From Bacteroidales bacterium (GTDB lineage Bacteria; Bacteroidota; Bacteroidia; Bacteroidales; B18-G4), in assembly GCA_032250805.1 (NCBI GenBank), contig JAVVEM010000008.1:25774-89773 (forward strand): 64,000 nucleotides of DNA. The letters are read 5' to 3'. The notes below the pieces were generated by a model. That model was given only the letters and a program-made list of their open reading frames with translations, was not told where the DNA came from and made no database searches. Positions within the stretch are counted from its first letter, which is position 1, and each line of letters begins with the position of its first letter. This document shows, one piece after another, positions 1-53,367 of this stretch. The translations under genes were made by a program, and so were the position numbers.

Positions 1-1190
1 GGCTCCACAGCCCTTTCATACATGCCGTTTGTCCAGGCAATGGTCATGCCGTAATTGGTAACGGGCACGCCGGCCTCAATGGCTTCCTGCAGCCTGTTGC
101 TCAATTGTTTTTTTGTGATCATACAGCCACCGCATTGCACAACCAGCGAATATTCGCCAATGGGCCGCGGAAATTCTTCGAGCCCGGCAACAATGTCGAA
201 CATCAGATCTTTACCGGTATGTTTACGCAGCCAGCCGGGGATCTTGTAACGACCGATGTCGTCGCAGTTTACCTGGTGTGTGCATGATTCAAGGATCAGC
301 ACCCGGTCATTGTCTTTGAGCTTGCCAATGGCTGGTGTGCCTTCAAGATAGGCCCTGAAATTTCCCTTGCGGCTTGCCAGCAGCACACTGAAGCCTGTTA
401 AGGGAATATCTTCTGGCACGACCCTGTTCATTTTGTCAAACACCTGGCTGTCGGTAATGGCCAGCTTCGGCTTTATTTTTGTTTTTTTCAGAAATGCTTC
501 AACTTCGGTTTCTTTCAATACAATATTTATACAGTTATTATCAAGCACGTCGCGGATGGCCTGAACCTGAGGCAGGATCATTCTTCCTTCGGGTGCTTCC
601 AGGTCGATCGGCGTGATGAGCATCACAATTTCGCCGGGCTCAAGCAGTGTTCCCAGCAGTGAAGTGCTTGTCCAGGATGATTTTGGCATGAGCCGGATAA
701 TGGCATCCAGCACTTTGTCGATGGCATCGGGCGGGCGGCTGCTGAATTCAATGATCTCGGAACTGAATTTCTCTTTAACCGTTTTGGTCGTAGTGTCAAG
801 AAGCCGTGATTCGTCAGATTTGTTATGAATAAATAGGTAGGGGATGTTATAACGCCTGAATTGTGCGATCAGGCTTTCTTCATATTTCCCTATGGTATTT
901 CGGGCGATGATGATAATGGCCAGGTCGATCGATTTGATCACCTGCATGCTTTTACTCACCCTGAGCGTTCCCAGTTCGCCACGGTCGTCAATACCGGCAG
1001 TATCGATCATTACGGCGGGGCCGATGCCAAAGATCTCGACCGATTTTTTTACCGGATCGGTGGTTGTTCCTGCTTTGCCGGATACAATGGCGATGTCCTG
1101 GCCTGCGATGGCATTGATAAATGAGCTTTTTCCGTTGTTGCGCCGCCCAAAGATGCCAATATGCGGTTTATGTTCTCTCCCTTTTTTCAT
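1..1190 (-). CDS. hydF: [FeFe]-hydrogenase maturation GTPase HydF (C-terminus cut by window edge)
   Basis: Absent from the ORF track because it runs off the window. My translation of the minus strand from ATG (1190-1188) reads MKKGREHKPHIGIFGRRNNGKSSFINAIAG... It has GTPase G1 (GRRNNGKS), G3 (DTAG) and G4 (NKSD) motifs, plus C-terminal CTH...QCGGC cluster-binding cysteines. The start overlaps the hydE stop (ATGA at 1187-1190). Confidence 0.85.
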   Translation of the reverse strand, partial: MKKGREHKPHIGIFGRRNNGKSSFINAIAGQDIAIVSGKAGTTTDPVKKSVEIFGIGPAVMIDTAGIDDRGELGTLRVSKSMQVIKSIDLAIIIIARNTIGKYEESLIAQFRRYNIPYLFIHNKSDESRLLDTTTKTVKEKFSSEIIEFSSRPPDAIDKVLDAIIRLMPKSSWTSTSLLGTLLEPGEIVMLITPIDLEAPEGRMILPQVQAIRDVLDNNCINIVLKETEVEAFLKKTKIKPKLAITDSQVFDKMNRVVPEDIPLTGFSVLLASRKGNFRAYLEGTPAIGKLKDNDRVLILESCTHQVNCDDIGRYKIPGWLRKHTGKDLMFDIVAGLEEFPRPIGEYSLVVQCGGCMITKKQLSNRLQEAIEAGVPVTNYGMTIAWTNGMYERAVE

Positions 1191-2290
1191 TGTTCCGGTT
1201 TTGTGTTTTCAATGCGGTTATGGTAGTGTTTTGAGTCGCCCCATAAATGATAGTTGACACGCATTCCCATACCGGCAATATTTTCTTCCAGGCCGGCCAG
1301 GCTTGCTTCTGCCATATCAGTAAATATGGGCTTGCCTTCGTACAGCATGTAATTGCATGCCTGCGCCGGTGGGGTGATGTTTGGCATGAATATGTTGGCG
1401 CCGGAGGCGATGGCTTTGATCCTTCCGGCCGGATCGAGGGTGTTCATGGCCGTTGACGCGGCCATGTTGATGTCTTTCATCATGATCCGCATCAGTGCTA
1501 TCATCTTCAGGCTGAGATCAATCCGCTCTTCATCCGAAGGGATGTCGGCACATCTGCGGGCCAGAGGGGTGTCGGCATGTGGAATATAGGGGCCCATTCC
1601 CACCATATCGATATTGAAATCACGCATAAAGATCAGGTCGTCGGCAAGATGTCCGGTGTGCTGGAAAGGCAAGCCTATCATCACTCCCGTACCTGTTTGG
1701 TATCCCAGCCGCTGAAGTGTCCTGAGTGCTTCCACACGCTTGTCGAAGCTGTGAAATTCGTCTCTGGGGTGCAGCTTCCCGTAAAGGCTCCGGCTGCTGG
1801 TTTCAATCCTTAAAAGGTAGCGATGGGCCCCGGCTTCATACCATTCGCGGTATATGTCTTCGGATTGTTCTCCGCAACTAAGGGTGATGCCCAGTTCATG
1901 ATTGCTCAGTGATTTTATTTCCCTGAGCAGCTCAGTGATGCTGCTGGTAAATGTCCGGTCGCTGCGCTCGCCGCTCTGGATCACCACTGAGCCGAAGCCT
2001 TTTTTCCAGGCATATTCTGCCGCATGAAGCACTTCCCGGGTATTGAGCAGGTATCGTCCTGACTTATTGTTCCCGCTCCTGATGCCACAATAGTAACAGT
2101 TTTTCCGGCAGATATTCGATAATTCGATCAATCCCCTGAGGCTTACCTGCCTGCCCACATATTTTGCGGCAACCCTTCTTGCACGGGCAAAAAGCAATTG
2201 CCGCTCATCTTCATCCTGTGTTTGCAATATGTAGATGAGGTCCTCCCGGCTCAGGCTTTCTTTGCGGAGTATGCTTTCTGTTGTTTTCAT
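1187..2290 (-). CDS. hydE: [FeFe]-hydrogenase H-cluster radical SAM maturase HydE
   Basis: 367 aa with radical-SAM motif CRKNCYYCGIR and biotin-synthase-like architecture. It sits between hydG and hydF. Confidence 0.9.
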   Translation of the reverse strand: MKTTESILRKESLSREDLIYILQTQDEDERQLLFARARRVAAKYVGRQVSLRGLIELSNICRKNCYYCGIRSGNNKSGRYLLNTREVLHAAEYAWKKGFGSVVIQSGERSDRTFTSSITELLREIKSLSNHELGITLSCGEQSEDIYREWYEAGAHRYLLRIETSSRSLYGKLHPRDEFHSFDKRVEALRTLQRLGYQTGTGVMIGLPFQHTGHLADDLIFMRDFNIDMVGMGPYIPHADTPLARRCADIPSDEERIDLSLKMIALMRIMMKDINMAASTAMNTLDPAGRIKAIASGANIFMPNITPPAQACNYMLYEGKPIFTDMAEASLAGLEENIAGMGMRVNYHLWGDSKHYHNRIENTKPEQ

Positions 2291-2310: not shown

Positions 2311-3750
2311 TCAGAAATAGAGGTCGCGTTTTCCTGCTTTAACTAATTCTATCCGCTTGATCAATTCATTCTTAAGCTGGGGGGCGATTCCTCCATTCAG
2401 GTTATTATTGATGATGGCCCAGCCTTTTTCGGCCTGCTTCGCTGTGGCATAATCCTCGAGATATTCGGCCAGGGTAAGGATGGCATTGGGTGTGCAGAAC
2501 TTCTTTATGAAACCCGGCACCGAAAATTCCATAAAATGTTCGCCGGTTCTTCCTTTCCGGTAGCATGCCGTACAAAATGAGGGCAGGTACTCATGTTCAA
2601 GCAACTCGTCGATGACCTGGGCGAGGCTGCGTGTGTCGTGGATCAGGAATTGTTCTTTATTCAGATCCTGTATGGCTTGCAATTCCTTTTCACCGGCATA
2701 GGCGCCCATTTCCAGTTTTGTGCCGGCATCGATCTGCGAAACCCCGAACGCAAGCACTTCCCTGCGGATATGCTCAGGCTCGCGGGCAGTGAGGATCATC
2801 CCCGTATAGGGCACGGCCAGCCGGAGAATGGCCACCAGCTTAACAAAGTCCTTATCGCTCACGCCATATTTAGTGTCGATCTCATATTCGGCGGCATCCT
2901 GCAAGCGGGGAAAGGAAATGGTGTGCGGGCCAACCTGGTAGCATGCTTCGAGATGGTTGGTATGCCGCACCAGCGCCATCACCTCAAATTTCCAGTCATA
3001 CAGGCCAAAGAGCGCACCGATCCCCACATCGTCGAGGCCGGCTTCCTGTGCACGGTCGAGGGCCGTTAAGCGGTAATTGTAATCTTTTTTCTTTCCCCCC
3101 CGGTGATACCAACTGTATGCTTCGGGGTGGTAAGTTTCCTGAAAAACCTGGTATGTGCCGATGCCGGCTTCTTTTACAATCCTGAAGCCTTCAATATCGA
3201 GCGGGGCGGCATTGATGTTCACTCTCCTGATCTCGCCCCGGCCTTTGCGCACATCATACACTGTCTTTACCGAATCGGCAATAAATTCGGGTGTATACTC
3301 CGGGTGCTCGCCATATACCAGGATGAGCCTTTTTTGCCCTTCCTGCTCCAGGGCTTCAACATTTTTTATTAATTCGTCGCGGCCCAGAGTTTTTCTTATG
3401 GCATCCTTGTTCGATGCCTTAAATCCGCAGTATTTGCAGTTGTTAATGCAATAATTTCCTACATATAAGGGGGCAAACAACACAATTCTGTTTCCATATA
3501 CTTTTTGTTTCAGCCTGCGTGCGCCTTCCTTTATTTCTTCGACGAGGGCGGGGTCGTTGGTGTTCAGGAGCACGGCCACCTCCTGCATGGAGAGACGCTG
3601 TTTGTTCAGCGACTTTGCTATGATCTTTTTCACTGCAGAGCCATCTGTTACGGCTGTGTCGAGCATATCCCGGATCTCACCGGCATCGATGAAATTTTTC
3701 ATGGGCTCGTCCTTGATCGCGTATTGTTCGGGTGTGAACTTCATGGCCAT
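2311..3750 (-). CDS. hydG: [FeFe]-hydrogenase H-cluster radical SAM maturase HydG (ThiH-like tyrosine lyase)
   Basis: 479 aa with radical-SAM motif CINNCKYCGF. A C-terminal auxiliary cluster motif (CTACYRKGRTGEHF...C) is typical of HydG. Sits in hydGEF context. Confidence 0.9.
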   Translation of the reverse strand: MAMKFTPEQYAIKDEPMKNFIDAGEIRDMLDTAVTDGSAVKKIIAKSLNKQRLSMQEVAVLLNTNDPALVEEIKEGARRLKQKVYGNRIVLFAPLYVGNYCINNCKYCGFKASNKDAIRKTLGRDELIKNVEALEQEGQKRLILVYGEHPEYTPEFIADSVKTVYDVRKGRGEIRRVNINAAPLDIEGFRIVKEAGIGTYQVFQETYHPEAYSWYHRGGKKKDYNYRLTALDRAQEAGLDDVGIGALFGLYDWKFEVMALVRHTNHLEACYQVGPHTISFPRLQDAAEYEIDTKYGVSDKDFVKLVAILRLAVPYTGMILTAREPEHIRREVLAFGVSQIDAGTKLEMGAYAGEKELQAIQDLNKEQFLIHDTRSLAQVIDELLEHEYLPSFCTACYRKGRTGEHFMEFSVPGFIKKFCTPNAILTLAEYLEDYATAKQAEKGWAIINNNLNGGIAPQLKNELIKRIELVKAGKRDLYF

Positions 3751-3767: not shown

Positions 3768-4916
3768 CTATACTGTTATCGTTGTATTGATCTTTGCAGG
3801 CTTAAGCCTCACGGTAAACGTGCTTCCCTTTTCCGGTTCACTCGCCACAGTGATGGTTCCGTCGTAGTTGTTATTTACAAGCTTCTTTACGATAGAGAGC
3901 CCAAGGCCGCTGCCGCTGATGTTTCTTGTTTTATTGTTTTTTATCCTCACAAATTCCTGGAAAAGCATCGAAAGTTCTTCATCGTTCATGCCGATACCCG
4001 TATCCTGAACCGTAATGATGAGCTGTTCTTTGTGTTGTTTAATGCTGATGTTCACCTCGCCATCCTCTTTGTTGTATTTCACGGCATTGGATATGAGGTT
4101 GTTGAAAATGATCTCAAGCTCGTTGGCATCGGCATTAAAATTCAGTTCCTTCGGGGCATGAAGATAAATTTTTACATTTTGCTGTATAGCCATGGGCTCG
4201 ATGGTATCCATCGCCATTCTTGCAACGGCAACAACATCCGACTCCTTTACCTGCCGTATCTTTTTTCCGGATTCAAGCTTGGTGAGGTCGAGCATGTCCA
4301 TGATCAGGTTGCGCATACCTTTAATGCGTTCAATCGAACGGTCGATCATGGTTTCATAATCTTCAATGTTATCGCCCGCCTGTTTGTCTTTCATAATGTT
4401 GAGGTATCCTTCAACTGCATTGATGGGCGATTTTAGTTCGTGCGAAAGTACCGACAGGAACTGGAAGCGCACCTGTTTGCCGGCTTCGTCGAGCTGCCTG
4501 GTCATCCTTTTCAGGAAGAGGTGCTTGGTAATATTGTCGATCGATGCCCTTAATTCGTCAGGAGTAAAGGGCTTGGGAACGAAATTGTATGCACCGTTGT
4601 TGGTGGCTTTAACTGCCAGGTCGAGCGAAGCGTATGAGGTGATCATCATTACGATGGCATCGATATTGTTTTTCCTGATATATTCAAGCACTTCAATGCC
4701 ATCCATGCCGGGCAGCTTATTGTCGAGCAGGACAATATCCGTTTCGCCGCGGTTTAATACCTCAATGGCGTATTCTCCTGTTTCGGCTTCTGTCAGGGCG
4801 AAATCAAAATCCTCCTCCATGAAGGGGTATCCAACAGAATAGTTCCTTAAAATGCGGGAGATGCCTGACCTGATCCCCGGTTCATCATCTACAACAAGTA
4901 TATTGAGCGTAGCCAT
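3768..4916 (-). CDS. Hybrid receiver-histidine kinase (REC-HisKA-HATPase, no sensory domain)
   Basis: N-terminal receiver (ILVVDDEPGIR...VLLDNKLPGMDG...KP), H-box SHELKSPINAVEGY, and a C-terminal ATPase with GSGLGLSIVK. Confidence 0.85.
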   Translation of the reverse strand: MATLNILVVDDEPGIRSGISRILRNYSVGYPFMEEDFDFALTEAETGEYAIEVLNRGETDIVLLDNKLPGMDGIEVLEYIRKNNIDAIVMMITSYASLDLAVKATNNGAYNFVPKPFTPDELRASIDNITKHLFLKRMTRQLDEAGKQVRFQFLSVLSHELKSPINAVEGYLNIMKDKQAGDNIEDYETMIDRSIERIKGMRNLIMDMLDLTKLESGKKIRQVKESDVVAVARMAMDTIEPMAIQQNVKIYLHAPKELNFNADANELEIIFNNLISNAVKYNKEDGEVNISIKQHKEQLIITVQDTGIGMNDEELSMLFQEFVRIKNNKTRNISGSGLGLSIVKKLVNNNYDGTITVASEPEKGSTFTVRLKPAKINTTITV

Positions 4917-4927
4917 AGTGGTTTGAT

Positions 4928-5323
4928 TTAAAGTTTTAACAATTTGTTGATCTCGCGTTCAAGCTGATCTTTTCTTATGCCTTTTTCAAGGAACTTGTCG
5001 GCGTGGATCCACTTTTTATCTGCTTCAGTGTCGAGACTGAAATTCAGACCTGTTTCGGCGGTGACCGCCGAGGCAATGATGATGGGCAGGTGCGGGTATT
5101 TTTTCTTCATTTTGTAACTGAGGATAAATCCGCTGTCTTTTTTTTCCATCATCAGGTCGATAATGGCCAGGTCGGGGGCTGAGTCTGCAATGGATTCTTC
5201 GGCCTCTTTTTCGCCCTGTGCCGTTCTTACTTCAAAGCCCATACTTTTAAGCTGTAGCTCGAGCTGGGCAAGATAATCCATGTCGTCGTCAACGATGAGG
5301 ATGTGTTTTTTTGTGTTGTTCAT
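4928..5323 (-). CDS. Stand-alone response-regulator receiver protein (CheY-like, no output domain)
   Basis: 131 aa with ILIVDDDMDY...LAIIDLMME...IIIASAV...FLEKG. This is a receiver fold only. Confidence 0.8.
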   Translation of the reverse strand: MNNTKKHILIVDDDMDYLAQLELQLKSMGFEVRTAQGEKEAEESIADSAPDLAIIDLMMEKKDSGFILSYKMKKKYPHLPIIIASAVTAETGLNFSLDTEADKKWIHADKFLEKGIRKDQLEREINKLLKL

Positions 5324-5341: not shown

Positions 5342-7327
5342 TTATTTGCCTCTCGGCAACGTAATTGTAAATGTTGTTCCTGTTTGACCTTTAGCGGGGT
5401 CGGCATTCGAGTCGACCGAGATCTTTCCTTTATGCATTTTTACGATCCCGTAAACCAGGGGCAGTCCCAGGCCGGTACCTTTACCAACTTCCTTGGTGGT
5501 AAAGAAGGGTGTAAACAGCTTGTCCATGTGCTTTTCGGGGATGCCATGCCCGGTATCGCTGATCATGATCTTCACACTGTGATCGTTGCCTTCCAGCCTG
5601 ATGCCCAGTTCGCCGCCTTCAGGCATGGCTTCAACGGCATTTTTTTCAAGATTGGTAAGCACCTGCATCATTTGTTCCCGGTCGATACTTGCCGTCAAAT
5701 GATCCGTTTCTACCCTGAAGCTGACCTTCACATTCCTGTCGTGTATGATGCTGCTGATGCTGTCGCTCAAAAATTCTTTCAGATCGGTTTCCTGAAGTCT
5801 TACCTGGTTTTTCCGGGCAAAGTTCAGCAGTCCTCCAACAATATGCTTGCAGCGCTCCGTTTGTTCTACAATGAGCTCGAGGTCTTTATAAACGGGATTT
5901 TCTTTTGATGTTTCATCTTTCAGGATGTTGCTGTACATGGTGATCACCCCGAGCGGGTTGTTCAATTCGTGGGCAATGCCTGCCGATAGTTGGCCCATGT
6001 GGGCAAGCTTTTCAGAGTGTCTGAGTGCTTGCTGGGTATTGGCGAGCTCTTCATTGCTCAGGTTAAGCTCTGCTACCGAGCGGTGAAGCTTTTCAATGGT
6101 AAAGGGCAGGCACATTTCGTCTTCGGCGAGTCCTTCGAAGATGGCAATGGCATGTTCGCGGCATGTTTCGTAACCGCATGCCCCACAGTTCAGGTGGTCA
6201 TTATCATTATATTTTCCCATCGAATGGAGGATGGCCCTGATTTTATCCTTATCAGGTTCCGCTACGCGGCGGTCTTCGGCAATAAATTCCCTCGACAGAT
6301 CCAGTTTATCGTACTTCATCATGTTTTTCTTCCATTCATCCCCGTCGAGCTGTTCAAGCTTTATTCTGGCGTAATTGCTCACGCGCAGCGTTCGTTCAAA
6401 TTTTTTGCCTCCACACGATAATCCCGGGCCCATAATGCATCCGTCGCAGCACAACAGCTCGAGGTGCTGATCTCTGATCACGCCGTTTTCAAATTCTTTG
6501 ATGGCTTCCCTGAAGTTTTCCTTTCCTTCGGCCACCAGCACATTGCCATGGCAAATGTCGTCATCGTGGTCGGTGGTCTGCAACAGACCCCTGCTAACAG
6601 GGAAGATGGCCCCTTTGCCGGAAGTGGGAGCATCAAACCCGCCATTTCCGTCCTTTTGTTCGTTAATGCCGGCTTGCTCCAGCATTCCTCGCAGCTCCCT
6701 GAAGGTAATGGCTTCGTCAATTTCATTGCTTTCGGCTTTCTTGGCAATGCACGGACCTACAAAAACGATCTTCACGTCCTTTCCGTATGTTTTCTTTATC
6801 ATCCTGGCAGTTGCCGTCATGGGCGAAACGATGGGCGCCAGCGATTTTGTGAGTTCCGGATGGTAATACTCAATATACCTGACGATTGCCGGGCAGTCGG
6901 AAGAGATGTAATTCTTTCCGTGGCGGTTTTTCAACAGCTTGCTGTACTCCTTTGCTACCAGGTCGGCACCAAACGAAACTTCAATGACTTTATCAAAGCC
7001 CAGGGCGCGTATCATGCCCGCAATGGCCGCAGGGTTGCTTAATTCTTTGAATTCGGCCGGGAAACTGGGAGCCAAAATGGCAAAAACCAAGTGATCTTTA
7101 TTCAACAATTCATTAACCACATCACTGGTTTCCAGAAACACCTTGGCTCCCTGGTTGCATACTTTTATGCAGTTTCCACAACCGATGCAACGTTCGCTGA
7201 CTACCTCAGCCTGTCCGTTCATGATCCTGATTGCTTTTGCAGGGCACTCGCGCACACAGGTAAAACACATCCTGCACCTGTCCTTTACGGTGAATACCAA
7301 CTGTCTGTGTTTTATATCTGTGTTCAT
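5342..7327 (-). CDS. Ferredoxin + [FeFe]-hydrogenase H-cluster-like domain + CxxCxxxC FeS domain fused to a histidine kinase (putative sensory hydrogenase-kinase)
   Basis: aa 18-57 carry two CxxCxxCxxxCP ferredoxin motifs. H-domain motifs are SSDCPAIV (6881-6904), GPCIAKKAE (6731-6757) and ELLCCDGCIMGPG (6422-6460), which align with TSCCPAW / MPCTAKKFE / EVMACPGGCIAGGG of the adjacent HydA. NCGACGYETC is an RnfB-type FeS domain. H-box is AHELNNPLG. The ATPase has GTGLGLPLV. Confidence 0.8.
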   Translation of the reverse strand: MNTDIKHRQLVFTVKDRCRMCFTCVRECPAKAIRIMNGQAEVVSERCIGCGNCIKVCNQGAKVFLETSDVVNELLNKDHLVFAILAPSFPAEFKELSNPAAIAGMIRALGFDKVIEVSFGADLVAKEYSKLLKNRHGKNYISSDCPAIVRYIEYYHPELTKSLAPIVSPMTATARMIKKTYGKDVKIVFVGPCIAKKAESNEIDEAITFRELRGMLEQAGINEQKDGNGGFDAPTSGKGAIFPVSRGLLQTTDHDDDICHGNVLVAEGKENFREAIKEFENGVIRDQHLELLCCDGCIMGPGLSCGGKKFERTLRVSNYARIKLEQLDGDEWKKNMMKYDKLDLSREFIAEDRRVAEPDKDKIRAILHSMGKYNDNDHLNCGACGYETCREHAIAIFEGLAEDEMCLPFTIEKLHRSVAELNLSNEELANTQQALRHSEKLAHMGQLSAGIAHELNNPLGVITMYSNILKDETSKENPVYKDLELIVEQTERCKHIVGGLLNFARKNQVRLQETDLKEFLSDSISSIIHDRNVKVSFRVETDHLTASIDREQMMQVLTNLEKNAVEAMPEGGELGIRLEGNDHSVKIMISDTGHGIPEKHMDKLFTPFFTTKEVGKGTGLGLPLVYGIVKMHKGKISVDSNADPAKGQTGTTFTITLPRGK

Positions 7328-7361: not shown

Positions 7362-9086
7362 TTACTTCATTACTTCTCTTTCTGTATAATTTGTGTGCAG
7401 CAACTCATGGCTTTTATGCCCGCAGGGTTCTCCAAGGAAAGTGTTGTATATCTCAATGATATCAGGGTTTTTATGCGAAACTTTTATGCTTTCGCCTTCA
7501 TCGATATCATAGAGGCTTTTCATCCTGGCAAGGATATCTTCCTTTTCGGCACCTATTTTTTGTCCTCCGCCGGCGATACATCCTCCCGGGCAGGCCATCA
7601 CTTCAATAAAATGGATGTCGTTTCTTCCGGCCCTGATCTCGTCGAGGAGTATCCTTGCATTATTCAGTCCGCTAACCACTGCGATGCCAAGCTCCAGGTC
7701 GCCGATCTTTATGCTTGTTTCTTTTCTTCCGTTCATCCCCCTGATCTGCGGAATCCGGAATGCCGTGAGCTCTTTTCCTGTGATCTTATTGTAGGCAGTG
7801 CGGATGGCTGCTTCCATAACTCCGCCGGAGGCTCCAAACAGCTTTCCTGCCGAACTGCGGAATCCCATGGGAGAGTCGGCCAGCTCTGGTTCAAGCTTGT
7901 GGATGTCGACACCGTGCATGCGAATAAAATCAGCCAGCTCACGGGTGGTAAGCACGGCATCAACATCGCTAATGCCGTGGCGGGTCATCTCATTGCGCTG
8001 TGCTTCGAATTTTTTCGCCGTACACGGCATAATTGATACGGAGTAAATATTCTCGGGTTTAATGTTTTCCTTTTCGGCATAATAGCTTTTAATCACTGCG
8101 CCGAGCATTTGTTGCGGTGATTTGCAGCTTGAAATATTCGGGAGGAAATCCGCGGCAAACTCCTCTGCATATTTTATCCAGGCAGGGCAGCAACTGGTGA
8201 TCATTGGCAGTGTGCCTCCGTTTGATACGCGCTGGATCAGCTCCGCCGATTCTTCTATAATGGTGAGGTCGGCCGAAAATGTTGTGTCGAACACCGTTTT
8301 GAATCCTATCTTTCGCAGTGCGGCATTCAAAATGCCGTTGATGTCTTTTCCGGGCTCCATGCCGAAGGCTTCTGCCAACGATACCGATATGGCAGGGGCA
8401 TACTGAACGACAAGTGTTTTGGAAGGATCGTTCATGGCCTCTGTGATCTCGGCGAAATGATTCTTCTCGGTGAGTGCGCCTGTAGGGCAAACCATGATGC
8501 ATTGTCCGCAATTCACACAACTGGAAGTGTTCAGTCCGCTGTTGAAAGCTGTTCCGATCACGGTATTGCTTCCGCGTCTGATAAAGTCGATGGCCGAAAC
8601 CCCCATCACCTCTTCACACACCCTTATGCATCTTCCGCATAGAATACATTTGTCGGGGTCGCGCACAATGCTGGGGCTCGACTGGTCGAGGTTATAATTG
8701 TTTTTCACGCCGTGGATGCGGCGCTCGGTAACGTTCAGTTCTTTCGAAAGCCCCTGCAGCTCACAGTTTCCGTTTCTTACACAATACAGGCAATCGTCGG
8801 GATGGTTCGAAAGCAGCAGCTCAACAATGGTTTTGCGTGATTCGATCACCTTATTGGAGTGCGTGTTTATTTTCATTCCATCGGCTACCGGAAACGAGCA
8901 GGAAGAAACCAGCTTGCCGCTGTCTTCAAGTTCTACCACACACATCCTGCACGATCCGCTGGGAAACATATCTTTCATATGGCAGAGGGTGGGTACTTTT
9001 ACGCCATTTCTTTCAAGCACATCCAGAATGGTTTCACCGTTTTCGGCGGCCACTTTTTTCTTGTTTATTACGATTTCAAAGCTCAT
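7362..9086 (-). CDS. hydA: [FeFe]-hydrogenase catalytic subunit HydA (HndD-like, NAD(P)/ferredoxin-linked type)
   Basis: 574 aa with an N-terminal plant-type 2Fe-2S domain, HPDDCLYCVRNGNCELQ, and two 4Fe-4S ferredoxin motifs. H-cluster motifs are TSCCPAW, MPCTAKKFE and EVMACPGGCIAGGGQ. A C-terminal small-subunit-like tail is present. Confidence 0.92.
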   Translation of the reverse strand: MSFEIVINKKKVAAENGETILDVLERNGVKVPTLCHMKDMFPSGSCRMCVVELEDSGKLVSSCSFPVADGMKINTHSNKVIESRKTIVELLLSNHPDDCLYCVRNGNCELQGLSKELNVTERRIHGVKNNYNLDQSSPSIVRDPDKCILCGRCIRVCEEVMGVSAIDFIRRGSNTVIGTAFNSGLNTSSCVNCGQCIMVCPTGALTEKNHFAEITEAMNDPSKTLVVQYAPAISVSLAEAFGMEPGKDINGILNAALRKIGFKTVFDTTFSADLTIIEESAELIQRVSNGGTLPMITSCCPAWIKYAEEFAADFLPNISSCKSPQQMLGAVIKSYYAEKENIKPENIYSVSIMPCTAKKFEAQRNEMTRHGISDVDAVLTTRELADFIRMHGVDIHKLEPELADSPMGFRSSAGKLFGASGGVMEAAIRTAYNKITGKELTAFRIPQIRGMNGRKETSIKIGDLELGIAVVSGLNNARILLDEIRAGRNDIHFIEVMACPGGCIAGGGQKIGAEKEDILARMKSLYDIDEGESIKVSHKNPDIIEIYNTFLGEPCGHKSHELLHTNYTEREVMK

Positions 9087-9106: not shown

Positions 9107-11056
9107 TTAATTGATCATTACAGCATCAAACTTGCATACTTCTTCACAGGTGCCGCAGCCAATACATTTATTGTCGACAATAAAGTGGGGGCTTTTTCTT
9201 GTCCCGATGATGGCTGCGGTAGGGCATTTCTTCGCGCAGAGCGTACAGCCTGTACATTTATCCACATCGATGGAGAAGGTCCTGAGCTCAGTACAAACGC
9301 CCGCGGGGCATTTTCTTTCGAAGATGTGTTCTTCGTATTCGTTCCTGAACCAGCGCAGGGTGCTCAGCACTGGATTTGGTGCTGTTTGCCCCAGTCCGCA
9401 CAGCGAAGTGTCTTTGATCACCTGTCCGAGTTTTTCGAGTTGCATAACGCCTTTAAAGCGCTCCAGGGCATCGGCATTGTTGCCATTGGGTTTATGGCTG
9501 ATGCTTTCGAGAATTTCAAGCATCCTTTTGGTACCCTCCCGGCAGGGGATGCACTTGCCGCAGCTTTCGCGCTGAATAAAGTCCATAAAGAACTTCGCCA
9601 CATCCACCATGCAGGTATCTTCATCCATGACCACCAGGCCTCCGCTGCCCATCATGGCACCGGCACTGATCAGCGATTCATAATCGATCTGGATGTCGAG
9701 GTTGGCTTCGGTGATACATCCCCCCGAAGGACCCCCGATCTGTACGGATTTAAATTTCTTGCCGTTGGGTATTCCTCCGGCAATGGTAAAGATGATCTCT
9801 CTTACGGTGGTTCCCATGGGGATCTCAACGAGGCCCGTAAGGGCTACTTTTCCGGAGAGCGCAAATACTTTCGTACCCTTGCTGTTTTCTGTACCGATGG
9901 CGGCAAACTTCTCTTCACCCATCTCCGCGATCGAAGGTATGTTTGAGAGCGTTTCAACATTATTAATAATTGTAGGCTTGCCAAAGAGTCCTTTTACGGC
10001 AGGAAAGGGAGGCCTGGGCCTGGGCATGCCCCGCTTGCCTTCAATGCTGTGGATAAGGGCTGTTTCTTCACCGCATACAAAAGCGCCCGCACCCATTTTA
10101 ATGATCAGCTCCAGACTGAAACCGCTCTGATATATGTTTGCACCGAGAAGTCCGAAATCGCGGGCCTGTTGAATGGCTTCTTTCAGCCTGGCAATGGCCA
10201 GTGGGTATTCGGCACGGATATACACATAGGCTTTTGATGCTCCGATAGCGTATGCTGCAATGGCCATGCCTTCGATGAGCCTGTGCGGATCACCCTCGAT
10301 CACAGCCCTGTCCATGAATGCGCCGGGATCACCCTCATCGGCATTGCAGATCAGGTATTTCTGGCTGGCTTTTTCCCTGTATGCAAATCCCCATTTTCTT
10401 CCTGTGGGAAAGCCCCCGCCACCGCGACCGCGCAAGCCGCTCTTTTCTACCATTTCGCAGACTTCCAGAGGATGCTTTTGTGCAATGATATTTAAAAAAT
10501 TACGATAGCCTCCATGAGCAATATATTCTTCGATCGAGGCCGGGTTGATGAGGCCGCAGTTTTTAAGTACAAGCCTGCTCTGAGGCGCAAAGAATGGGTG
10601 TTCGTCAATGTAGGGCACCTGATCATATGCTTCCAGCGCCAGGCTTCTGAACTGGCCTATGGCGGCTTCCTTATCGGTTTCTCCTGAAAAGGTTTGCTCC
10701 AGCAGTGATCCGGCCTGGCCGGCAGTAACATTTTTATAGGATATCCGGTTTTTCCCCGGAAGCTGTATGTCGACGATGGGCTCTGCCGAACACAGGCCGA
10801 TACATCCTACGCGGATCACTTCCGCATCGATATTGTTTTTGCTTGTCCAGCTTTCGATGGCCGCAATGGTCTTGTCCGCTCCGGCACCCAGACCGCAGGT
10901 TCCGGCTCCTACATAAATACGTGGTTTGGACGTATCTTCACGACGTAGCATTCTTAAACTGTTCCTGTCGGCAGGGGAGAGGTCTTCCGTGTCAACACGC
11001 TGATCCAGTAAGGTCCTTAACACTTCTGCATATTGGTATTTTTTGGTATTGCTCAT
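9107..11056 (-). CDS. hydB: NuoF-like flavoprotein subunit HydB of a multimeric [FeFe]-hydrogenase
   Basis: 649 aa with an N-terminal thioredoxin-like 2Fe-2S domain, FMN/NADH motif GRGGGGFPTG, and ESCGKCIPCREG. The C-terminus has 2x[4Fe-4S] (CTGCTLCAKKCP, CIGCGTCEEVC). The start overlaps the hydC stop (ATGA at 11053-11056). Confidence 0.9.
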   Translation of the reverse strand: MSNTKKYQYAEVLRTLLDQRVDTEDLSPADRNSLRMLRREDTSKPRIYVGAGTCGLGAGADKTIAAIESWTSKNNIDAEVIRVGCIGLCSAEPIVDIQLPGKNRISYKNVTAGQAGSLLEQTFSGETDKEAAIGQFRSLALEAYDQVPYIDEHPFFAPQSRLVLKNCGLINPASIEEYIAHGGYRNFLNIIAQKHPLEVCEMVEKSGLRGRGGGGFPTGRKWGFAYREKASQKYLICNADEGDPGAFMDRAVIEGDPHRLIEGMAIAAYAIGASKAYVYIRAEYPLAIARLKEAIQQARDFGLLGANIYQSGFSLELIIKMGAGAFVCGEETALIHSIEGKRGMPRPRPPFPAVKGLFGKPTIINNVETLSNIPSIAEMGEEKFAAIGTENSKGTKVFALSGKVALTGLVEIPMGTTVREIIFTIAGGIPNGKKFKSVQIGGPSGGCITEANLDIQIDYESLISAGAMMGSGGLVVMDEDTCMVDVAKFFMDFIQRESCGKCIPCREGTKRMLEILESISHKPNGNNADALERFKGVMQLEKLGQVIKDTSLCGLGQTAPNPVLSTLRWFRNEYEEHIFERKCPAGVCTELRTFSIDVDKCTGCTLCAKKCPTAAIIGTRKSPHFIVDNKCIGCGTCEEVCKFDAVMIN

Positions 11057-11523
11057 GACTGATCTTCAGATTTTCTGTAGTTATCAATGATCTGGTCGAT
11101 GCCGGCAGCATCTACCCTGGCATAAAATTCGCCATTAATACATATCACAGGAGCCAGGCCGCAAGCCCCGATGCAAGCCACAACTTCAAGGCTGAAAAGG
11201 CCGTCTCTACTGGTCTGACCCGCTTTGATCCTTAAATTGTCCTGGATTTTTTCCAGTACCGTTGCCGAGCCCAGCACATGGCATGCCGTACCCCGGCATA
11301 CCTGGATGTGGTATTTCCCGAGTGGTTCGAACCTGAACTGGTTGTAAAAGGTCGCAACACCAAAGATTTTGCTGGCAGGCATCCGTAAATGCCTGCCAAC
11401 TTTTACCACGGAACTTTCCGACAGGTAGCCCTCCTTTTCCTGTATGGCCTGCAGTATGGGGATCAACTGATCCTTTCCTGCGCCGGCATTTGCCTCGAGA
11501 ATGATATCTGTTGCTTCTTTCAT
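11053..11523 (-). CDS. hydC: NuoE-like 2Fe-2S subunit HydC of a multimeric [FeFe]-hydrogenase
   Basis: 156 aa with CRGTACHVLG...VACIGACGLAPV, the thioredoxin-like [2Fe-2S] pattern of NuoE/HndA. Confidence 0.9.
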   Translation of the reverse strand: MKEATDIILEANAGAGKDQLIPILQAIQEKEGYLSESSVVKVGRHLRMPASKIFGVATFYNQFRFEPLGKYHIQVCRGTACHVLGSATVLEKIQDNLRIKAGQTSRDGLFSLEVVACIGACGLAPVICINGEFYARVDAAGIDQIIDNYRKSEDQS

Positions 11524-11559: not shown

Positions 11560-12081
11560 TTAATGGGCTGTAGTTGCCTTCGCTTTTTTATCGAGCAGTA
11601 ATTGTATCTCTGCAAGCAACTTTTCTGCTTCAACCGGTTTCCTTAAAAATCCGTCTACTTTCAGCCAAACCGAAGGGCCTTCCTCGCTTTTGTAGTCAAC
11701 CCCTGCATTGCCACTTACTACATCTTTAATAAGCAATACATCAAGTTCGCGATAGTTGGGGTCCTGGCGGAATTCCCTGGCCATTTCCTGAACACTCGGT
11801 TTGGTGGTTGTAAGAATATCGATAGAAGAAAGCATCATCACCGGCATTTTATTAAAATCAGGGTTTTCGCTAAGTTCCTTTGCCATTTCAAAGCCTTCAA
11901 AGTGAGTGGTCATCATCACATCGAGAATGGCGAGGTCGGGTTTTTCGGTCCAGGCTTTTTTAATGCCTTCGATCTTGTCGTTGGCCGAAACTACTTCGTA
12001 TCCGTTATTTGTAAGGATAGCTTTTACGACGGTGATCACATCAATGTCGTCGTCTACGATCAGAATTTTCTTTGTTTCCAT
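11560..12081 (-). CDS. Stand-alone receiver protein with a large insertion between beta4 and beta5
   Basis: 173 aa with ILIVDDDIDV...LAILDVMM...MMLSS...FLRKP. The Ser85/86 to Lys148 spacing is about 62 residues, against about 22 in CheY. It is the first gene of the hydrogenase block. Confidence 0.7.
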   Translation of the reverse strand: METKKILIVDDDIDVITVVKAILTNNGYEVVSANDKIEGIKKAWTEKPDLAILDVMMTTHFEGFEMAKELSENPDFNKMPVMMLSSIDILTTTKPSVQEMAREFRQDPNYRELDVLLIKDVVSGNAGVDYKSEEGPSVWLKVDGFLRKPVEAEKLLAEIQLLLDKKAKATTAH

Positions 12082-12138
12082 GGTGTTTTTTGTTTAGGTG
12101 ATTTATGATAAAGTTTACGATGCTAAATTACCATGCTA

Positions 12139-12159
12139 ACAAGGTGCTGCACAAGGTGC
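12139..12159 (-). promoter_or_regulatory. Direct repeat ACAAGGTGC x2 (12-bp register) in the upstream region of the hydrogenase block; candidate operator
   Basis: acaaggtgc occurs at 12139-12147 and 12151-12159. On the minus strand this reads GCACCTTGT-GCA-GCACCTTGT and also forms TGCAC-CTT-GTGCA. It lies 58-78 bp upstream of the ATG at 12081. Confidence 0.3.
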
Positions 12160-12306
12160 AAAAGTCGTGATTTGAGGGTGTAAGGAAGTATGAAAATGTA
12201 TGGTAAAAAGAGGAATTACGGAAAGGAAAAACCAGTAAAAAAACGCAATTACAGCAATTCCCGGTCCCCGGGGGTGATAAACGGCAATCCGAAAACGCTT
12301 TTCTGA

Positions 12307-12966
12307 TTATATTGTAACGAGCTTATTTTTAATGGCATACGAGAGCAGGCTGATCGTACTTTTGCAGTTTGTTTTGGATAGGAGGTTGGATTTATGCCCA
12401 ACCACGGTGCGTTCGCTGATAAAGAGTTCTTCTGCCATCTCGCGGTTGTTGAGCCCGTCGCAAATCAACTGCAGTACCTCCTGTTCGCGTTTGGTAAATT
12501 GCAGCTCGCTGCCTTCTTCTTTTTTTTGTTCGGAGAACTTTTTGCCGAAGTACGACCAGAGTTCGGGCGAGTAATAGGTGTTTCCTGCGGCAATGGATTG
12601 AAGCGCCTGGTCGAGGAGTTCCCTGGTAATGTTCTTCAGCAGAAATCCATGTACACCGATATCCATCATCTTGTCGATATATTCCTCATCATCAAACATG
12701 GTAAGGATCACGATCTTCAGGTCGGGGAATTCCCTGATGGCGATCTCGCTGGCTTCAATGCCATTCATAATGGGCATCTGCAGGTCGAGCAGGACCAGGT
12801 CGGCAGGTTTTTCCTTCTGGAGTTCGATAAACTCCTTTCCGTTGGAAGCTTCGCCCGTAACAGTGGCATATTTCAGCCTGTTAACGACCATTTTTAGTCC
12901 ATTCCTGAAAAATTCGTGATCGTCAACGATGATAATTTTGAGCGTATTCTCCGTGTCCTTTATCAT
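12307..12966 (-). CDS. NarL/LuxR-family response regulator (REC + LuxR HTH)
   Basis: 219 aa with IIIVDDHEFF...LVLLDLQMP, and a C-terminal FTKREQEVLQLICDGLNNREMAEELFISERTVVGHKSNLLSK. Confidence 0.9.
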   Translation of the reverse strand: MIKDTENTLKIIIVDDHEFFRNGLKMVVNRLKYATVTGEASNGKEFIELQKEKPADLVLLDLQMPIMNGIEASEIAIREFPDLKIVILTMFDDEEYIDKMMDIGVHGFLLKNITRELLDQALQSIAAGNTYYSPELWSYFGKKFSEQKKEEGSELQFTKREQEVLQLICDGLNNREMAEELFISERTVVGHKSNLLSKTNCKSTISLLSYAIKNKLVTI

Positions 12967-12981
12967 GTGGCAAAGATAAGA

Positions 12982-14295
12982 CTATTTTGCATATCTGCCG
13001 CTTAGTTTTACCTCAACAACGACAAGGGTACCGGCTTCTTTCATGGAATGGATCTTATAGGTGCCATGGATTGATTCGAGGCGGCTGATAATATTTTTCA
13101 GTCCCATGCCAGAGTTCTCAGTATTCAGCACCTTATCAAGGTCGAAACCTATGCCGTCGTCCATGTATGTGAGCTGCAGAATGTCATCGAACTTTTCCAG
13201 GTAGATCTCTATCTTTCCTGCCCCGGAATGCTTTATGCTGTTATTCAGCAGTTCGGTAACCACCCTGTAAAGCACAAGTTCAATGGTTTGGTCGAAACGT
13301 TCCTGTATCGATGCTTCGTAAAGGATGTTGATCTTCTGGCTCAGGTTAATTTTCTTGCAGAACGATTCAACGGCTTTGATCAGCCCAAAGTCGATGATCA
13401 CCCGTGGCGTAAGCAGGTTGGCGATGGTACGGGTTGAGGTGATGGCCTCGTCGAGGATCTCATTCGTTCTCTTGAGAAATTCTGTCCTTTCCTCCATACT
13501 CAGGTCATCCGACTCCAGCTCGTTCACATATAATTTAATTGTCGACATGAGTGGCCCCAGATCGTCGTGTATCTCCCGGGCAATGCGTTCACGCTCTTTT
13601 TCCTCGGCATTGATCACTGCTCTCAGGATCTTGCGTTCCAACTGTTTTCGTTCGGTAATATCCCTGGCGATCGACAATATGGCCTTTTGGCCCTGATAGT
13701 CGATGAGGCGGCTTTTAACTTCAAGCGAAAGGATGCGTCCGTGCCTGGTACGATGTTCGGTTTGGTAGGTATGCTGACCACGTGCCAGGATGAGCTTCAG
13801 GTTTTCATCAACGGCTTCGGTGTATTTCTGTGTTTTGATATCCCTGAAATTCATCCGCTTCATCTCTTCAGCGCTGTAACCCATTGAGTCGATGGCAACC
13901 TGATTAATTTCCAGTAAATTGCCTTCTGTGTCAGCCAGGAATATTTCGTCGCTGCTGTGGTGAAACAAGGTTGAAAAGCGTTTTTCCGATTCTTCGCGCT
14001 CGCGCTCGGTTTTATGGAGGGCGTGGAGAATCCTTGCAATGCCGATCACGGCGATGGCCATAATAATGGATGTGGCAATTCCAAGCCATTCGTCGAGCAG
14101 GATCAGCTCAGGCGAGAGTTCTTTTCCCAAATGTTGCCACAGGTCGACCACCCTGCGAACACCCATGAATATCAGGGCCACGGCAATGAGCATCCACGCG
14201 ACCTTGCTCAGGGCATAGCGCAACAGCCAAAGAGCACCTGCAAAGGCAATAAGCTGCAGCAGAATGGAAACAATAAGTGCATTTGTCGTAAGCAT
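12982..14295 (-). CDS. Membrane sensor histidine kinase (TM-PAS-HisKA_3-HATPase, NarX/DegS class)
   Basis: Hydrophobic N-terminal helices, a PAS-like segment, H-box REIHDDLGP, and an ATPase with MDDGIGF...GMGLKNI. Confidence 0.85.
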   Translation of the reverse strand: MLTTNALIVSILLQLIAFAGALWLLRYALSKVAWMLIAVALIFMGVRRVVDLWQHLGKELSPELILLDEWLGIATSIIMAIAVIGIARILHALHKTEREREESEKRFSTLFHHSSDEIFLADTEGNLLEINQVAIDSMGYSAEEMKRMNFRDIKTQKYTEAVDENLKLILARGQHTYQTEHRTRHGRILSLEVKSRLIDYQGQKAILSIARDITERKQLERKILRAVINAEEKERERIAREIHDDLGPLMSTIKLYVNELESDDLSMEERTEFLKRTNEILDEAITSTRTIANLLTPRVIIDFGLIKAVESFCKKINLSQKINILYEASIQERFDQTIELVLYRVVTELLNNSIKHSGAGKIEIYLEKFDDILQLTYMDDGIGFDLDKVLNTENSGMGLKNIISRLESIHGTYKIHSMKEAGTLVVVEVKLSGRYAK

Positions 14296-19010: not shown

Positions 19011-19253
19011 CTACTTTTTAATGAATTTTCTACTGTTGACATTGTTCCCCGACGAAAGTTCCAGCACATACATGCCGGGGCTTAAGTTATCGGTCTGTAT
19101 TGTTTTACAGAATATTTCATCTCCCTGAGGATATTCCTGACTGAAAAGGCATTTGCCCATCAGGTCGAAAACTTTAATGTGCACATTTTCTTGTCCTTCA
19201 GCATTATAGCTTATCGATATGCGTGCATCGGCGGGGTTTGGAAACAAGTAGAT
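19011..19253 (-). other. T9SS (Por) C-terminal sorting domain of the LVIVD protein
   Basis: The last 80 aa are IYLFPNPADARISISYNAEGQENVHIKVFDLMGKCLF...GMYVLELSSGNNVNSRKFIKK. Confidence 0.75.
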
Positions 19254-33990: not shown

Positions 33991-35253
33991 TCATCGTGCA
34001 GTGATCTGCTTAAAAAGTTCTGCCAAAGCAGCAGCCCATGCGCCGGAATACTCCTCAAGGTTTTTTTGTACATCTTCCGACGGATAAGCCTTCAGATAGT
34101 GGTGTGCACATATGGGATCAGATGTGTATGATGGTGTACTGGTTCCGGCACCGCTTAGTTTTTGGATGTTTTCCAGCAGCGATTCTCCATCTTTAAGGAA
34201 CAAAAGATCGCTGTCGTCAGCAAGAAAGCCGGCCAGGTCGATAATATTTTTACCAGGCAGAAGGTTGCTCACGATGTTCTCCTGTGCAAAGCAAACAACA
34301 GCATGTATATCGTGTGTTGCCTGCAGCAATTGTTTTTGCAACTCTGTTTCGGGATTGCTCAGGTGATCATAAATACTGATCATGGTCTTGTTTGCTGTTT
34401 GCAATGCGAAGGCATAAGGAACCGGCTGATAAGGATGCGTGCCTTTATAGAGTGGAATAGCCGGTCGTATGGGAAGTACCTTCAGAAAAGCGATGTTTCC
34501 TTCAGCCTGTGATTTTTCTGCAGCCGGCAATTCAGGATTGAAGTGCTGCAACAATTCCTTTTTTGGCACTTTTGGCACATGCTTCCAGCAGTGCCCGATA
34601 AAATCGCATTCGTATGGGTCGCTGCAATGCGGGCCAACTTCGATCTTTGGCGAGTGGGGCAGGGTGAGGGTTTCTTTTTCTTTCAGGATCTGGCTCCTGA
34701 TAAATTCCTGGCGCGACAATGCTTCGTCGGTAACATGAACGGTTTTGAAGAGTTTGGCCGGCTCGATCTCATCGCCACGCTCATAGTTTTCATCAATGTG
34801 GATGATCGATATGCTTTGCAGGTCCAGTCCTGTGCCCCGGATAACATAGTACTGCAGGGCCGCGTCCATCAGATATGTGGGAGATATCCCCCTCGAGCTC
34901 TTTACTTCGTATGCATGCCAGCCGGTAGCTGTCTTCACGAGGATGTCGAGGAAAATAAGGATCTGGTCATACTGAAAGCCTGCTTCGTAGATCACCGGAT
35001 AGCCTGATCTGATCTTTTCCTGTGTAAGCATTACAGATCTTCTGTATCCCGAAGGATGTCCGGGGCTCATATCTATACCCCCGGGGAAAAGCTGTTGCGC
35101 CAGCCCGCCCACTTCATGCCCTCTTCTGAAAACGATCATCCGCTCCTGCGGAAGCCTGTCGCGTAAAAAAGGCCTTTTTTTATTAAGGTATAAGGATTTA
35201 AGGCACTGTACGCCCCGGATAAAGGTAGATTTGGAGAGGAGATGCTTTTCCAT
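33991..35253 (-). CDS. DUF2779-like protein (PD-(D/E)XK/Cas4-like nuclease fold with cysteine cluster)
   Basis: N-terminus LSKSTFIRGVQCLKSLYL is typical of DUF2779. Also YEVKSS and HCSDPYECDFIGHCW. Confidence 0.6.
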   Translation of the reverse strand: MEKHLLSKSTFIRGVQCLKSLYLNKKRPFLRDRLPQERMIVFRRGHEVGGLAQQLFPGGIDMSPGHPSGYRRSVMLTQEKIRSGYPVIYEAGFQYDQILIFLDILVKTATGWHAYEVKSSRGISPTYLMDAALQYYVIRGTGLDLQSISIIHIDENYERGDEIEPAKLFKTVHVTDEALSRQEFIRSQILKEKETLTLPHSPKIEVGPHCSDPYECDFIGHCWKHVPKVPKKELLQHFNPELPAAEKSQAEGNIAFLKVLPIRPAIPLYKGTHPYQPVPYAFALQTANKTMISIYDHLSNPETELQKQLLQATHDIHAVVCFAQENIVSNLLPGKNIIDLAGFLADDSDLLFLKDGESLLENIQKLSGAGTSTPSYTSDPICAHHYLKAYPSEDVQKNLEEYSGAWAAALAELFKQITAR

Positions 35254-35998: not shown

Positions 35999-36064
35999 CA
36001 GGATTTTGTTTGGAGCATAAAATTAATGAATTTCCTGTGTTTTTTCGGTAATTTCGCTGTTAAT

Positions 36065-53151: not shown

Positions 53152-53367
53152 TTATTCTGCCACAAATATCTTGCTCATAACCAAGCTTTTGTTGCTTAGG
53201 CTGATCACATATGTGCCTGCCGGCAGCGAGGAGATATTCACGCTGCTGCAGCTGGCATTCTTTTGGATCATCAGTTGTCCCTTGCTGTCGAAAATCTGCA
53301 GTTTTTCGAAATCTTTTTCCGAAGATATGAACAGTATTTCCGATGCCGGGTTGGGATAGATCCTTAG
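53152..53367 (-). other. T9SS (Por) C-terminal sorting domain of the propeller protein
   Basis: The last 71 aa are LRIYPNPASEILFISSEKDFEKLQIFDSKGQLM...LPAGTYVISLSNKSLVMSKIFVAE. Confidence 0.7.

Follow-up and report, generated by a model that had tools for sequence, protein, structure and literature searches.

We analysed a 64,000-nucleotide stretch of contig JAVVEM010000008.1 (the window), which comes from a Bacteroidales metagenome-assembled genome (MAG), and focused on a gene at 5342..7327 whose product joins a hydrogenase-like module to a histidine kinase (HK). We refer to this protein as HydS-HK. An earlier, sequence-only reading had put it forward as a candidate one-polypeptide H2 sensor, in an open reading frame (ORF) of 661 amino acids. 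The ORF lies exactly at these positions, begins with ATG and is on the minus strand, which that reading had left unstated. An identical protein is recorded at NCBI, where its only annotation is '[Fe-Fe] hydrogenase large subunit C-terminal domain-containing protein'.

A kinase-fused protein within a hydrogenase operon

Profile searches recovered the ferredoxin, hydrogenase-like, FeS, HisKA and HATPase parts that had been recognised in HydS-HK, and all five Pfam matches exceed their curated cut-offs. A Fer4 dicluster (residues 14-61) with two [4Fe-4S] ferredoxin motifs (C18/21/24/28 and C47/50/53/57) is followed by a compact H-domain (residues ~65-375). The latter contains the match to Fe_hyd_lg_C (PF02906; residues 81-301, E 3.5e-47, 161.6 bits vs. 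a cut-off of 22.1) and the motifs APS (86-88), SSDCP (142-146), SPM (168-170), GPCIAKKAE (191-199) and ELLCCDGC (290-297). A PF04060 FeS domain (residues 379-408, E 6e-9, 35.8 bits) bears the C-terminal cluster motif Cx2Cx4Cx16C (C381/384/389/406), and the protein ends in HisKA (residues 444-507, 49.8 bits) and HATPase_c (residues 549-659, 88.9 bits) domains. The strings AHELNNPLG, GTGLGLPLV and CGACGYETC, by which the sequence-only reading had identified the kinase and FeS parts, were all found.

The phospho-acceptor of the dimerization and histidine phosphotransfer (DHp) domain is H453, and the catalytic and ATP-binding (CA) domain contains N563, D591xGxG, an FTPFFTTK box and G617xGxG (G617/G619/G621). 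A family alignment of 39 members (61-81% identity, dominated by Bacteroidales) shows no variation in these H, N, G1, F and G2 boxes, and the best PDB match is ZraS (1.2e-32), which also superposes on the kinase part of an AlphaFold2 model. The kinase core is complete, and HydS-HK is predicted to have histidine kinase activity. The model has a mean predicted local distance difference test score (pLDDT) of 77, with values of ~80-95 over most of residues 60-240 and ~45-90 elsewhere in the sensor module. The highest-ranking Foldseek matches of the model in the PDB are CbA5H, DdHydAB, HydABC and CpI (E ~1e-19, 430-460 aligned columns). Between the C-terminal cluster and the kinase the model places a helix (407-424), a low-confidence stretch (424-438) and the DHp helix (439-472). 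C406, the last ligand of the C-terminal cluster, stands at the start of the first of these helices, 47 residues ahead of H453. The linker had been described as coiled; its helical nature is borne out by the model, but a coiled coil is weakly supported, with hydrophobic residues at 9/13 a/d positions in the best heptad register and low confidence over 424-438. Taken together, we judge it probable, with moderate confidence, that HydS-HK is a soluble, cytoplasmic sensor histidine kinase with a sensory-type [FeFe]-hydrogenase input domain.

The gene lies within an operon on the minus strand, in the order REC-hydC-hydB-hydA-HydS-HK-REC-REC/HK-hydG-hydE-hydF (REC, receiver), in which neighbouring genes are separated by gaps of no more than 36 nt or overlap by 4 nt. 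Immediately upstream, hydA (7362..9086) encodes a full catalytic subunit of the HydABC type (bifurcating or NADH-dependent), scoring 814 bits against NF040763 (cut-off 765) and keeping the proton-relay Cys and the L1-L3 motifs intact (TSCCPAW, MPCTAKKFE and EVMACPGGC); the 34 nt that had been reported between it and HydS-HK are correct. The companion subunits are encoded by hydB (9107..11056, NuoF-like flavoprotein) and hydC (11053..11523, NuoE-like, [2Fe-2S]). Downstream of HydS-HK by 18 nt is a stand-alone REC protein of 131 amino acids (4928..5323), which adjoins the sensor kinase in 6/6 related loci, and then a REC-HisKA-HATPase hybrid of 382 amino acids (3768..4916), a second conserved partner that is probably a relay kinase. 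Since both are co-conserved beside the sensor kinase, they are its likeliest phosphotransfer partners. The H-cluster maturases complete the operon: the radical-SAM enzymes HydG (2311..3750; TIGR03955, 495 bits) and HydE (1187..2290; TIGR03956, 326 bits) and the GTPase HydF (3..1190; TIGR03918, 482 bits), whose gene runs off the window edge. The first gene of the operon (11560..12081) encodes a third receiver, a DVU0259/DivK-like single-domain protein of 173 amino acids with an insertion and no output domain, which is conserved only in the close relatives L001-L003.

A genome-collection scan with HydS-HK as the single query returned only four true orthologues, the remaining matches being unrelated kinases. 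All twelve genes are in the same order in four close relatives, and six related loci, with identities as low as 63%, have the order hydCBA-sensor-REC-REC/HK. The most distant of these are on the Tenuifilaceae strain CYCD chromosome (L009) and a 4.9-Mb contig (L010), both at ~63% identity, in which hydC-hydB-hydA-sensor-REC-REC/HK is followed by a Rex-like gene and hydG. Between the window and these two loci the sensor kinase is 63% identical, above the 51-54% of HydA.

The Rex-like gene (Put_DNA-bind_N and CoA_binding domains) separates the REC-HK hybrid from hydG at L009:13612-14238 and L010:13598-14230. The window has no such gene, its hydG starting 17 nt after the hybrid. The Rex-like protein might supply the missing DNA-binding output or exert a parallel, NADH-dependent control. 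Just upstream of the operon in the window, also on the minus strand, are a LuxR/NarL-type response regulator (12307-12966) and a PAS-HisKA_3 kinase (12982-14295), a pair whose position is conserved in L001-L003 but not in L009 or L010 and which may supply the DNA-binding output in the window's lineage. Strain CYCD also has a second HydS-like sensor (L009:3358-5244, minus strand, 628 amino acids) beside a SpoIIE-type phosphatase (L009:2157-3338). This second sensor has SSMCP, FYCEGC and Cx2Cx4Cx16C motifs and a non-kinase C-terminal extension, and it is transcribed divergently from the hydCBA-sensor-kinase operon, so that two different hydrogenase-like sensors flank one hydrogenase operon.

The 225-nt non-coding gap upstream of the operon (12082..12306, minus strand) contains blocks conserved in three related MAGs: TTGCGTTTTTTTACyGGTT, TTTTTACCAT, ACTTTTsCACCTTGTGC, ATGGTAATTT and CGTAAACTTT. 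The third of these holds a small GCAC-N3-GTGC palindrome. We regard the blocks as a candidate promoter and operator from their conservation. A scan for sigma-70-type promoters gave counts no higher than in shuffled sequence, this consensus being the wrong model for Bacteroidota.

A modular input domain and its putative H-cluster site

We searched exhaustively with residues 1-425 of HydS-HK (window 6053-7327), leaving out the kinase, and recovered 5,616 cluster representatives at E<=1e-3, of which 986 were at E<=1e-30. Counts of outputs, ligand conservation and a tree, described below, cover the best 150 representatives. All 150 match essentially the whole sensor module, with the C-terminal cluster cysteines conserved in nearly all, and the ten that were scanned against Pfam carry bacterial signalling outputs. 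The module is followed by HisKA/HATPase in 43/150 and by PAS only in 44/150; a sigma-54 AAA+ activator is present in 15 (four of them with PAS; e.g., P0149 and P0163), GGDEF in four (e.g., P0142) and GAF-GAF-HK in one (P0172), and the other 43 have an unclassified extension or are fragments. In the literature consulted, the sensory module is linked only to PAS, kinase, chemotaxis and phosphatase functions. A rough neighbour-joining tree of the sensor module contains two blocks, one of PAS-only proteins and one where HK, sigma-54 and GGDEF outputs intermingle; the conserved input has thus changed its output repeatedly. Such exchange is typical of sensory domains and difficult to square with a role that is purely catalytic or vestigial. 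The fused architecture itself is less rare than the sequence-only reading had implied. In a whole-protein search, the best 120 of 7,918 matches (E<=1e-10) all share the full HydS-HK architecture, and most are from Bacteroidales.

CpI numbering was transferred to HydS-HK via an alignment with the adjacent HydA. The CpI ligands C300, C355, C499 and C503 correspond to C145, C193, C294 and C297, which are conserved in 146-149 of the 150 representatives. The four cysteines expected to bind the [4Fe-4S]H subcluster are thus retained, as had been claimed, and the choice left open between C293 and C294 can be settled: the cysteine conserved universally is C294, and C293 is an addition found in the HydS-HK clade and its nearest relatives, where it would restore a CxxGC option. 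Several pocket residues are also kept, namely K196 (CpI K358; 130/150 representatives), A86-P87-S88 (A230-P231-S232), S168-P169 (S323-P324) and F242 (F417), and the APS, SP and GPC motifs are near-invariant. In the 39-member family alignment all ligands, the eight ferredoxin and four C-terminal cysteines, D144 and K196 are invariant.

Other positions depart from the catalytic enzymes. The proton-relay residue C299 is replaced by D144, M353 by G191, M497 by L292, Q325 by M170 and S319 by A164; R286 is replaced by Leu and E279 is deleted. According to published work, sensory Groups C and D are marked by the absence of C299, M353 and M497 (PMC8163306, PMC11803613), and all three are replaced in HydS-HK. 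The change of M353 to Gly is as in TmHydS and that of M497 to Leu as in TamHydS, both of which still assemble a working H-cluster (PMC8163306, PMC11803613). The Asp at the C299 position is more unusual. It was found in 1/150 diverse relatives, the others having A, P, T, S or C; in the two characterised sensory enzymes the residue is Ala (PMC10407848). In CpI, Asp is the one replacement of C299 with which the enzyme retains 30-80% of its activity, and the crystal structure shows the Asp carboxylate hydrogen-bonded to the amine of the azadithiolate (adt) ligand (PMC6226526). Since a protic residue is strictly conserved at this adt-contacting position, a bound [2Fe] subcluster is plausible; the conservation of D144 across aligned sequences argues for it but is no proof.

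The strict motifs L1 (TSCCPxW), L2 (MPCxxKxxE) and L3 (ExMxCxxGCxxG) all fail on HydS-HK, which has SSDCPAI, GPCIAKKAE and ELLCCDGCIMG instead. We considered whether this failure is a sign of H-cluster loss and rejected that explanation, because the strict L1 and L2 patterns (P1 and P2) match 0/150 relatives, PAS-type proteins included, though the ligands are present. It represents a departure from the catalytic consensus, not from the fold. The spacing of the last two ligands divides the relatives into two groups. A [F/Y/C]-C-x-G-C (Cx2C) arrangement is present in 82/146 representatives, which form the block with HK, sigma-54 and GGDEF outputs. The other 64 have A-C-x-G-G-C (Cx3C) and are mostly PAS-only proteins of ~570 amino acids; TamHydS and HydA have the same spacing. 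This comparison covers TamHydS, the PAS-type relatives and catalytic [FeFe]-hydrogenases, with TmHydS outside it.

Known relatives and alternative readings

The closest characterised protein is TamHydS of Thermoanaerobacter mathranii (Group D / M2e), whose sequence we took from the supplement of PMC6984386 by machine reading; it yielded 434/435 residues with small numbering shifts, and our statements about it are accordingly at the level of motifs. BLASTP aligned TamHydS with HydS-HK at 30% identity over 437 columns (E 5e-43); the aligned region opens at the first ferredoxin cysteine and reaches the helix beyond the C-terminal cluster. TamHydS scores 132 bits against HydS-HK vs. 56 bits against the adjacent HydA. 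The two proteins therefore have the whole sensor module in common, including that helix, as well as the SPM and APS motifs, the replacement of M497 by Leu and an almost identical P1 region (ISSACPAVV in TamHydS, ISSDCPAIV in HydS-HK). The order of an N-terminal 2x[4Fe-4S] domain, an H-domain and a C-terminal Cx2Cx4Cx16C motif is the layout of Group C/D (M2f/M2e) proteins (PMC8163306), and HydS-HK has it. Like the HydS-HK gene, the TamHydS gene adjoins a trimeric bifurcating hydrogenase operon, and the protein binds an active H-cluster after artificial maturation (PMC8163306). However, TamHydS ends after the helix (435 amino acids) with no fused output, whereas in HydS-HK the helix runs into HisKA/HATPase; and it has Ala at C299, Ser at M353 and a Cx3C ACIGGC loop where HydS-HK has Asp, Gly and CCDGC.

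HydS-HK also agrees in module order with TmHydS of Thermotoga maritima (Group C / M2f), including a signalling domain after the C-terminal cluster, and both proteins have Gly at M353 and lack the C299 proton relay (PMC8163306, PMC10055695). The output of TmHydS is PAS, whereas that of HydS-HK is a kinase. A residue-fingerprint search found neither TmHydS nor TamHydS, nor a cluster representative of either, among the top 150 relatives, and TmHydS therefore appears more distant from HydS-HK than these. That putative sensors are linked to kinases had been stated by the sequence-only reading and is established in HydDB, where [FeFe] Group C1 is 'histidine kinase-linked (putative)' and often lies beside group A3 hydrogenase genes (PMC5037454). 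HATPase_c-bearing C1 proteins were described in Hydrogenedentota in 2024 (PMC11406978), and a C1 gene near hndABCD was reported in 2020 in a Bacteroidales isolate, Petrimonas mucosa (PMC7768429). Some published C1 members, those of Cloacimonadota, have their kinase in a separate neighbouring gene (PMC8542988), whereas in HydS-HK it is fused. On architecture and taxonomy we infer that HydS-HK belongs to C1 rather than C2, C3 or D. It is a further member of a known, abundant and uncharacterised class and not a new kind of system. The claim that no kinase-fused member has been characterised biochemically also stands, as we found no such work in the searchable literature up to mid-2026, in which only TmHydS and TamHydS have been studied.

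Two further systems bear on this comparison. The HoxBC/HoxJ pair of Cupriavidus necator ([NiFe] group 2b) follows the same logic, with a weak hydrogenase as the H2 receptor for a hydrogenase-controlling kinase (PMC5665086, PMC5037454). It differs in its [NiFe] site and unrelated fold and in that sensor and kinase are separate proteins in a complex; it has been demonstrated experimentally, whereas HydS-HK is known from sequence alone. The Nar1/NARF/IOP1 proteins, in turn, are eukaryotic cytosolic Fe-S assembly proteins with the PF02906 fold and four cubane cysteines but no hydrogenase catalysis. A grouping with them had been named as one of the results that would overturn the sensor proposal, and it was not seen: no Nar1-like protein is among the listed sequence or fold matches of HydS-HK, and the nearest relatives are bacterial modules with a C-terminal cluster. 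Nar1/NARF proteins are not signalling proteins and have no HydEFG, whereas HydS-HK has bacterial relatives, the Group C/D C-terminal cluster and an operon with hydGEF. We therefore rejected a Nar1-like identity on the relatives, the C-terminal cluster and the operon context.

Our preferred reading, which we hold with moderate confidence, is that HydS-HK controls the hydrogenase operon as a kinase responding to H2 (or to the redox state of its H-cluster). A number of observations weigh against it. Only two residues lie between the last two ligand cysteines (Cx2C; C294-D-G-C297), one fewer than in the canonical Cx3C. Approximately 31 HydA residues after the F417 loop are missing from the H-domain, and the canonical proton pathway is mostly gone. 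None of the three receiver proteins of the operon has a DNA-binding domain, nor do the conserved genes of the operon include a DNA-binding response regulator. To our knowledge the solved catalytic [FeFe]-hydrogenases are all Cx3C, and we know of no Cx2C-type protein that carries a [2Fe] subcluster, which is why our confidence is no higher. The C-terminal cluster of TamHydS is not reduced under 1 atm H2, leaving a signalling route via this cluster unproven (PMC13104023). H-cluster motifs were 'hardly' found in the C1 proteins of Hydrogenedentota, whose authors doubted H2 sensing (PMC11406978); the Cx2C loop explains this difficulty, strict patterns failing despite the presence of the ligands. 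Finally, not one member of the class is directly known to sense H2, and reviews still refer to the sensory role as 'putative' (PMC8924675, PMC12578642).

Some of these points would also fit a redox sensor. With one residue deleted from its C499-C503 loop, the H-domain would then hold a [4Fe-4S] cluster only, at a Nar1-like H-site (four such clusters in total), and the kinase would report the reduction state of the ferredoxin/NADH pool, or of a HydABC complex to which it may dock, and not H2 itself. Cx2C is common to the whole HK/sigma-54/GGDEF block, unlike every validated H-cluster protein compared, and the C299-equivalent position of the proteins in this block is highly variable (P, T, A, S, N, H or F), as if unconstrained. 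The two N-terminal ferredoxin clusters offer an obvious path of electron entry, and the failure of strict P1 and P2 throughout the relatives agrees with the published difficulty in finding C1 motifs (PMC11406978). However, those strict patterns fail on PAS-type relatives too and so are not diagnostic, and the clade-specific C293 gives back the canonical CxxGC option. The residues K196 (K358, which contacts CN), P87/S88, G120-A121 and F242 are conserved, and these weigh for a [2Fe] subcluster because holding it is their only known role. D144, moreover, is invariant in the family exactly at the adt-contacting position (PMC6226526). Maturase genes are in the same operon, though hydA alone would explain them. 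On balance we consider a purely redox-sensing role unlikely, but not negligible.

Two other roles appear considerably less probable. The kinase could sense an inhibitor or oxidant (O2 or CO), reporting damage to or ligation of the H-cluster so that the hydrogenase and maturases are shut down or protected. TamHydS does form a defined, stable species with O2, the two characterised sensory enzymes behave unusually towards CO (PMC8163306), and the operon's maturases would need re-induction after oxidative damage. However, nothing specific in the sequence points to O2 or CO, and dedicated O2 and redox sensors are usually simpler. The place of the gene after hydABC, and the (inferred) parallels with H2-linked regulation by R. 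albus HydS and T. saccharolyticum HfsB, fit H2 better (PMC8924675), and we regard this role as improbable. Alternatively, HydS-HK could be an accessory catalytic or structural subunit of HydABC (a 'T subunit') with a secondary or vestigial kinase. Its gene is co-transcribed directly after hydA on the operon reading, group C3 proteins are treated as a BfuT subunit in some Bfu types of Hydrogenedentota (PMC11406978), and D144 could support proton transfer (PMC6226526). The kinase boxes and H453 are invariant, however, so the kinase is not vestigial, and two receiver partners are co-conserved with it. The same module is joined elsewhere to sigma-54, GGDEF and PAS outputs, which only makes sense for signalling, and most of the canonical proton pathway is missing. 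An accessory subunit is thus very improbable.

Elsewhere in the window, a second ORF of 661 amino acids (56590-58575, minus strand) was considered as a paralogue of HydS-HK and rejected, as it encodes a REC-PAS-HisKA-HATPase hybrid and the equal length is coincidental. Two large beta-propeller/LVIVD-repeat proteins with Por_Secre_tail (type IX secretion) sorting domains are encoded at 19011-21308 and 53152-55686 (both minus strand), and these are consistent with a Bacteroidota origin. The ORFs at 33991-35253 (minus strand, 420 amino acids) and 35828-37369 (plus strand, 513 amino acids) had no Pfam match at E<=1e-6.

Proposed mechanism and implications

The analysis shows the architecture and hydrogenase fold of HydS-HK, its conserved ligands and pocket, its homology to TamHydS, its intact kinase core, its conserved operon and the reuse of its input module. 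For an H2-responsive HydS-HK we infer that it assembles an H-cluster and that H2 is its signal, as well as how the response is signed, which proteins receive the phosphate and what is regulated, in the following course of events. HydG, HydE and HydF of the operon would add a [2Fe] subcluster to the [4Fe-4S] cluster that C145, C193, C294 (or C293) and C297 coordinate, giving an H-cluster in a pocket without the fast proton pathway of catalytic enzymes. Binding of H2 and slow turnover would shift the redox and protonation state of this H-cluster. A conformational change might then pass via the C-terminal [4Fe-4S] domain, where C406 caps the helix running into the DHp bundle, and alter autophosphorylation at H453. 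Since the C-terminal cluster of TamHydS is not reduced by H2, coupling is more likely to be conformational than to occur by electron transfer to this cluster. Phosphate would move to the co-conserved stand-alone REC protein, the REC-HK hybrid or both, and from there to a transcriptional output outside the receivers encoded in the operon. Such a relay would tune expression of the hydCBA-hydGEF operon to the partial pressure of H2. A more specific proposal is that the Bacteroidales HydS-HK clade has a distinct H-cluster environment, with an invariant Asp at the adt contact and a CC-x-G-C loop, that acts as an H2-dependent kinase switch. We advance this tentatively, as a possibility that falls a little short of evenly balanced.

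The partial pressure of H2 sets which fermentation routes are thermodynamically open to Bacteroidales of the gut, rumen and digester, and none of the H2 signalling pathways demonstrated so far relies on an [FeFe] sensor. TmHydS and TamHydS have no known signalling partner, and the latest study names finding one as the critical next step (PMC13104023). HydS-HK, with its fused kinase and two conserved receivers, removes this obstacle, as H2-dependent autophosphorylation and phosphotransfer can be assayed directly, and it is the most direct route to testing H2 sensing by [FeFe] 'sensory hydrogenases'. D144 and CC-x-G-C are small, checkable departures from the characterised members. Should the distinct H-cluster switch prove true, HydS-HK would offer, for the first time among [FeFe] sensory hydrogenases, an output that can be read directly as autophosphorylation of one polypeptide, and it would settle both H2 sensing by Groups C and D and the binding of [2Fe] by the HK/sigma-54/GGDEF-linked Cx2C block. 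Since the family is abundant in Bacteroidales metagenomes, any result would generalise widely.

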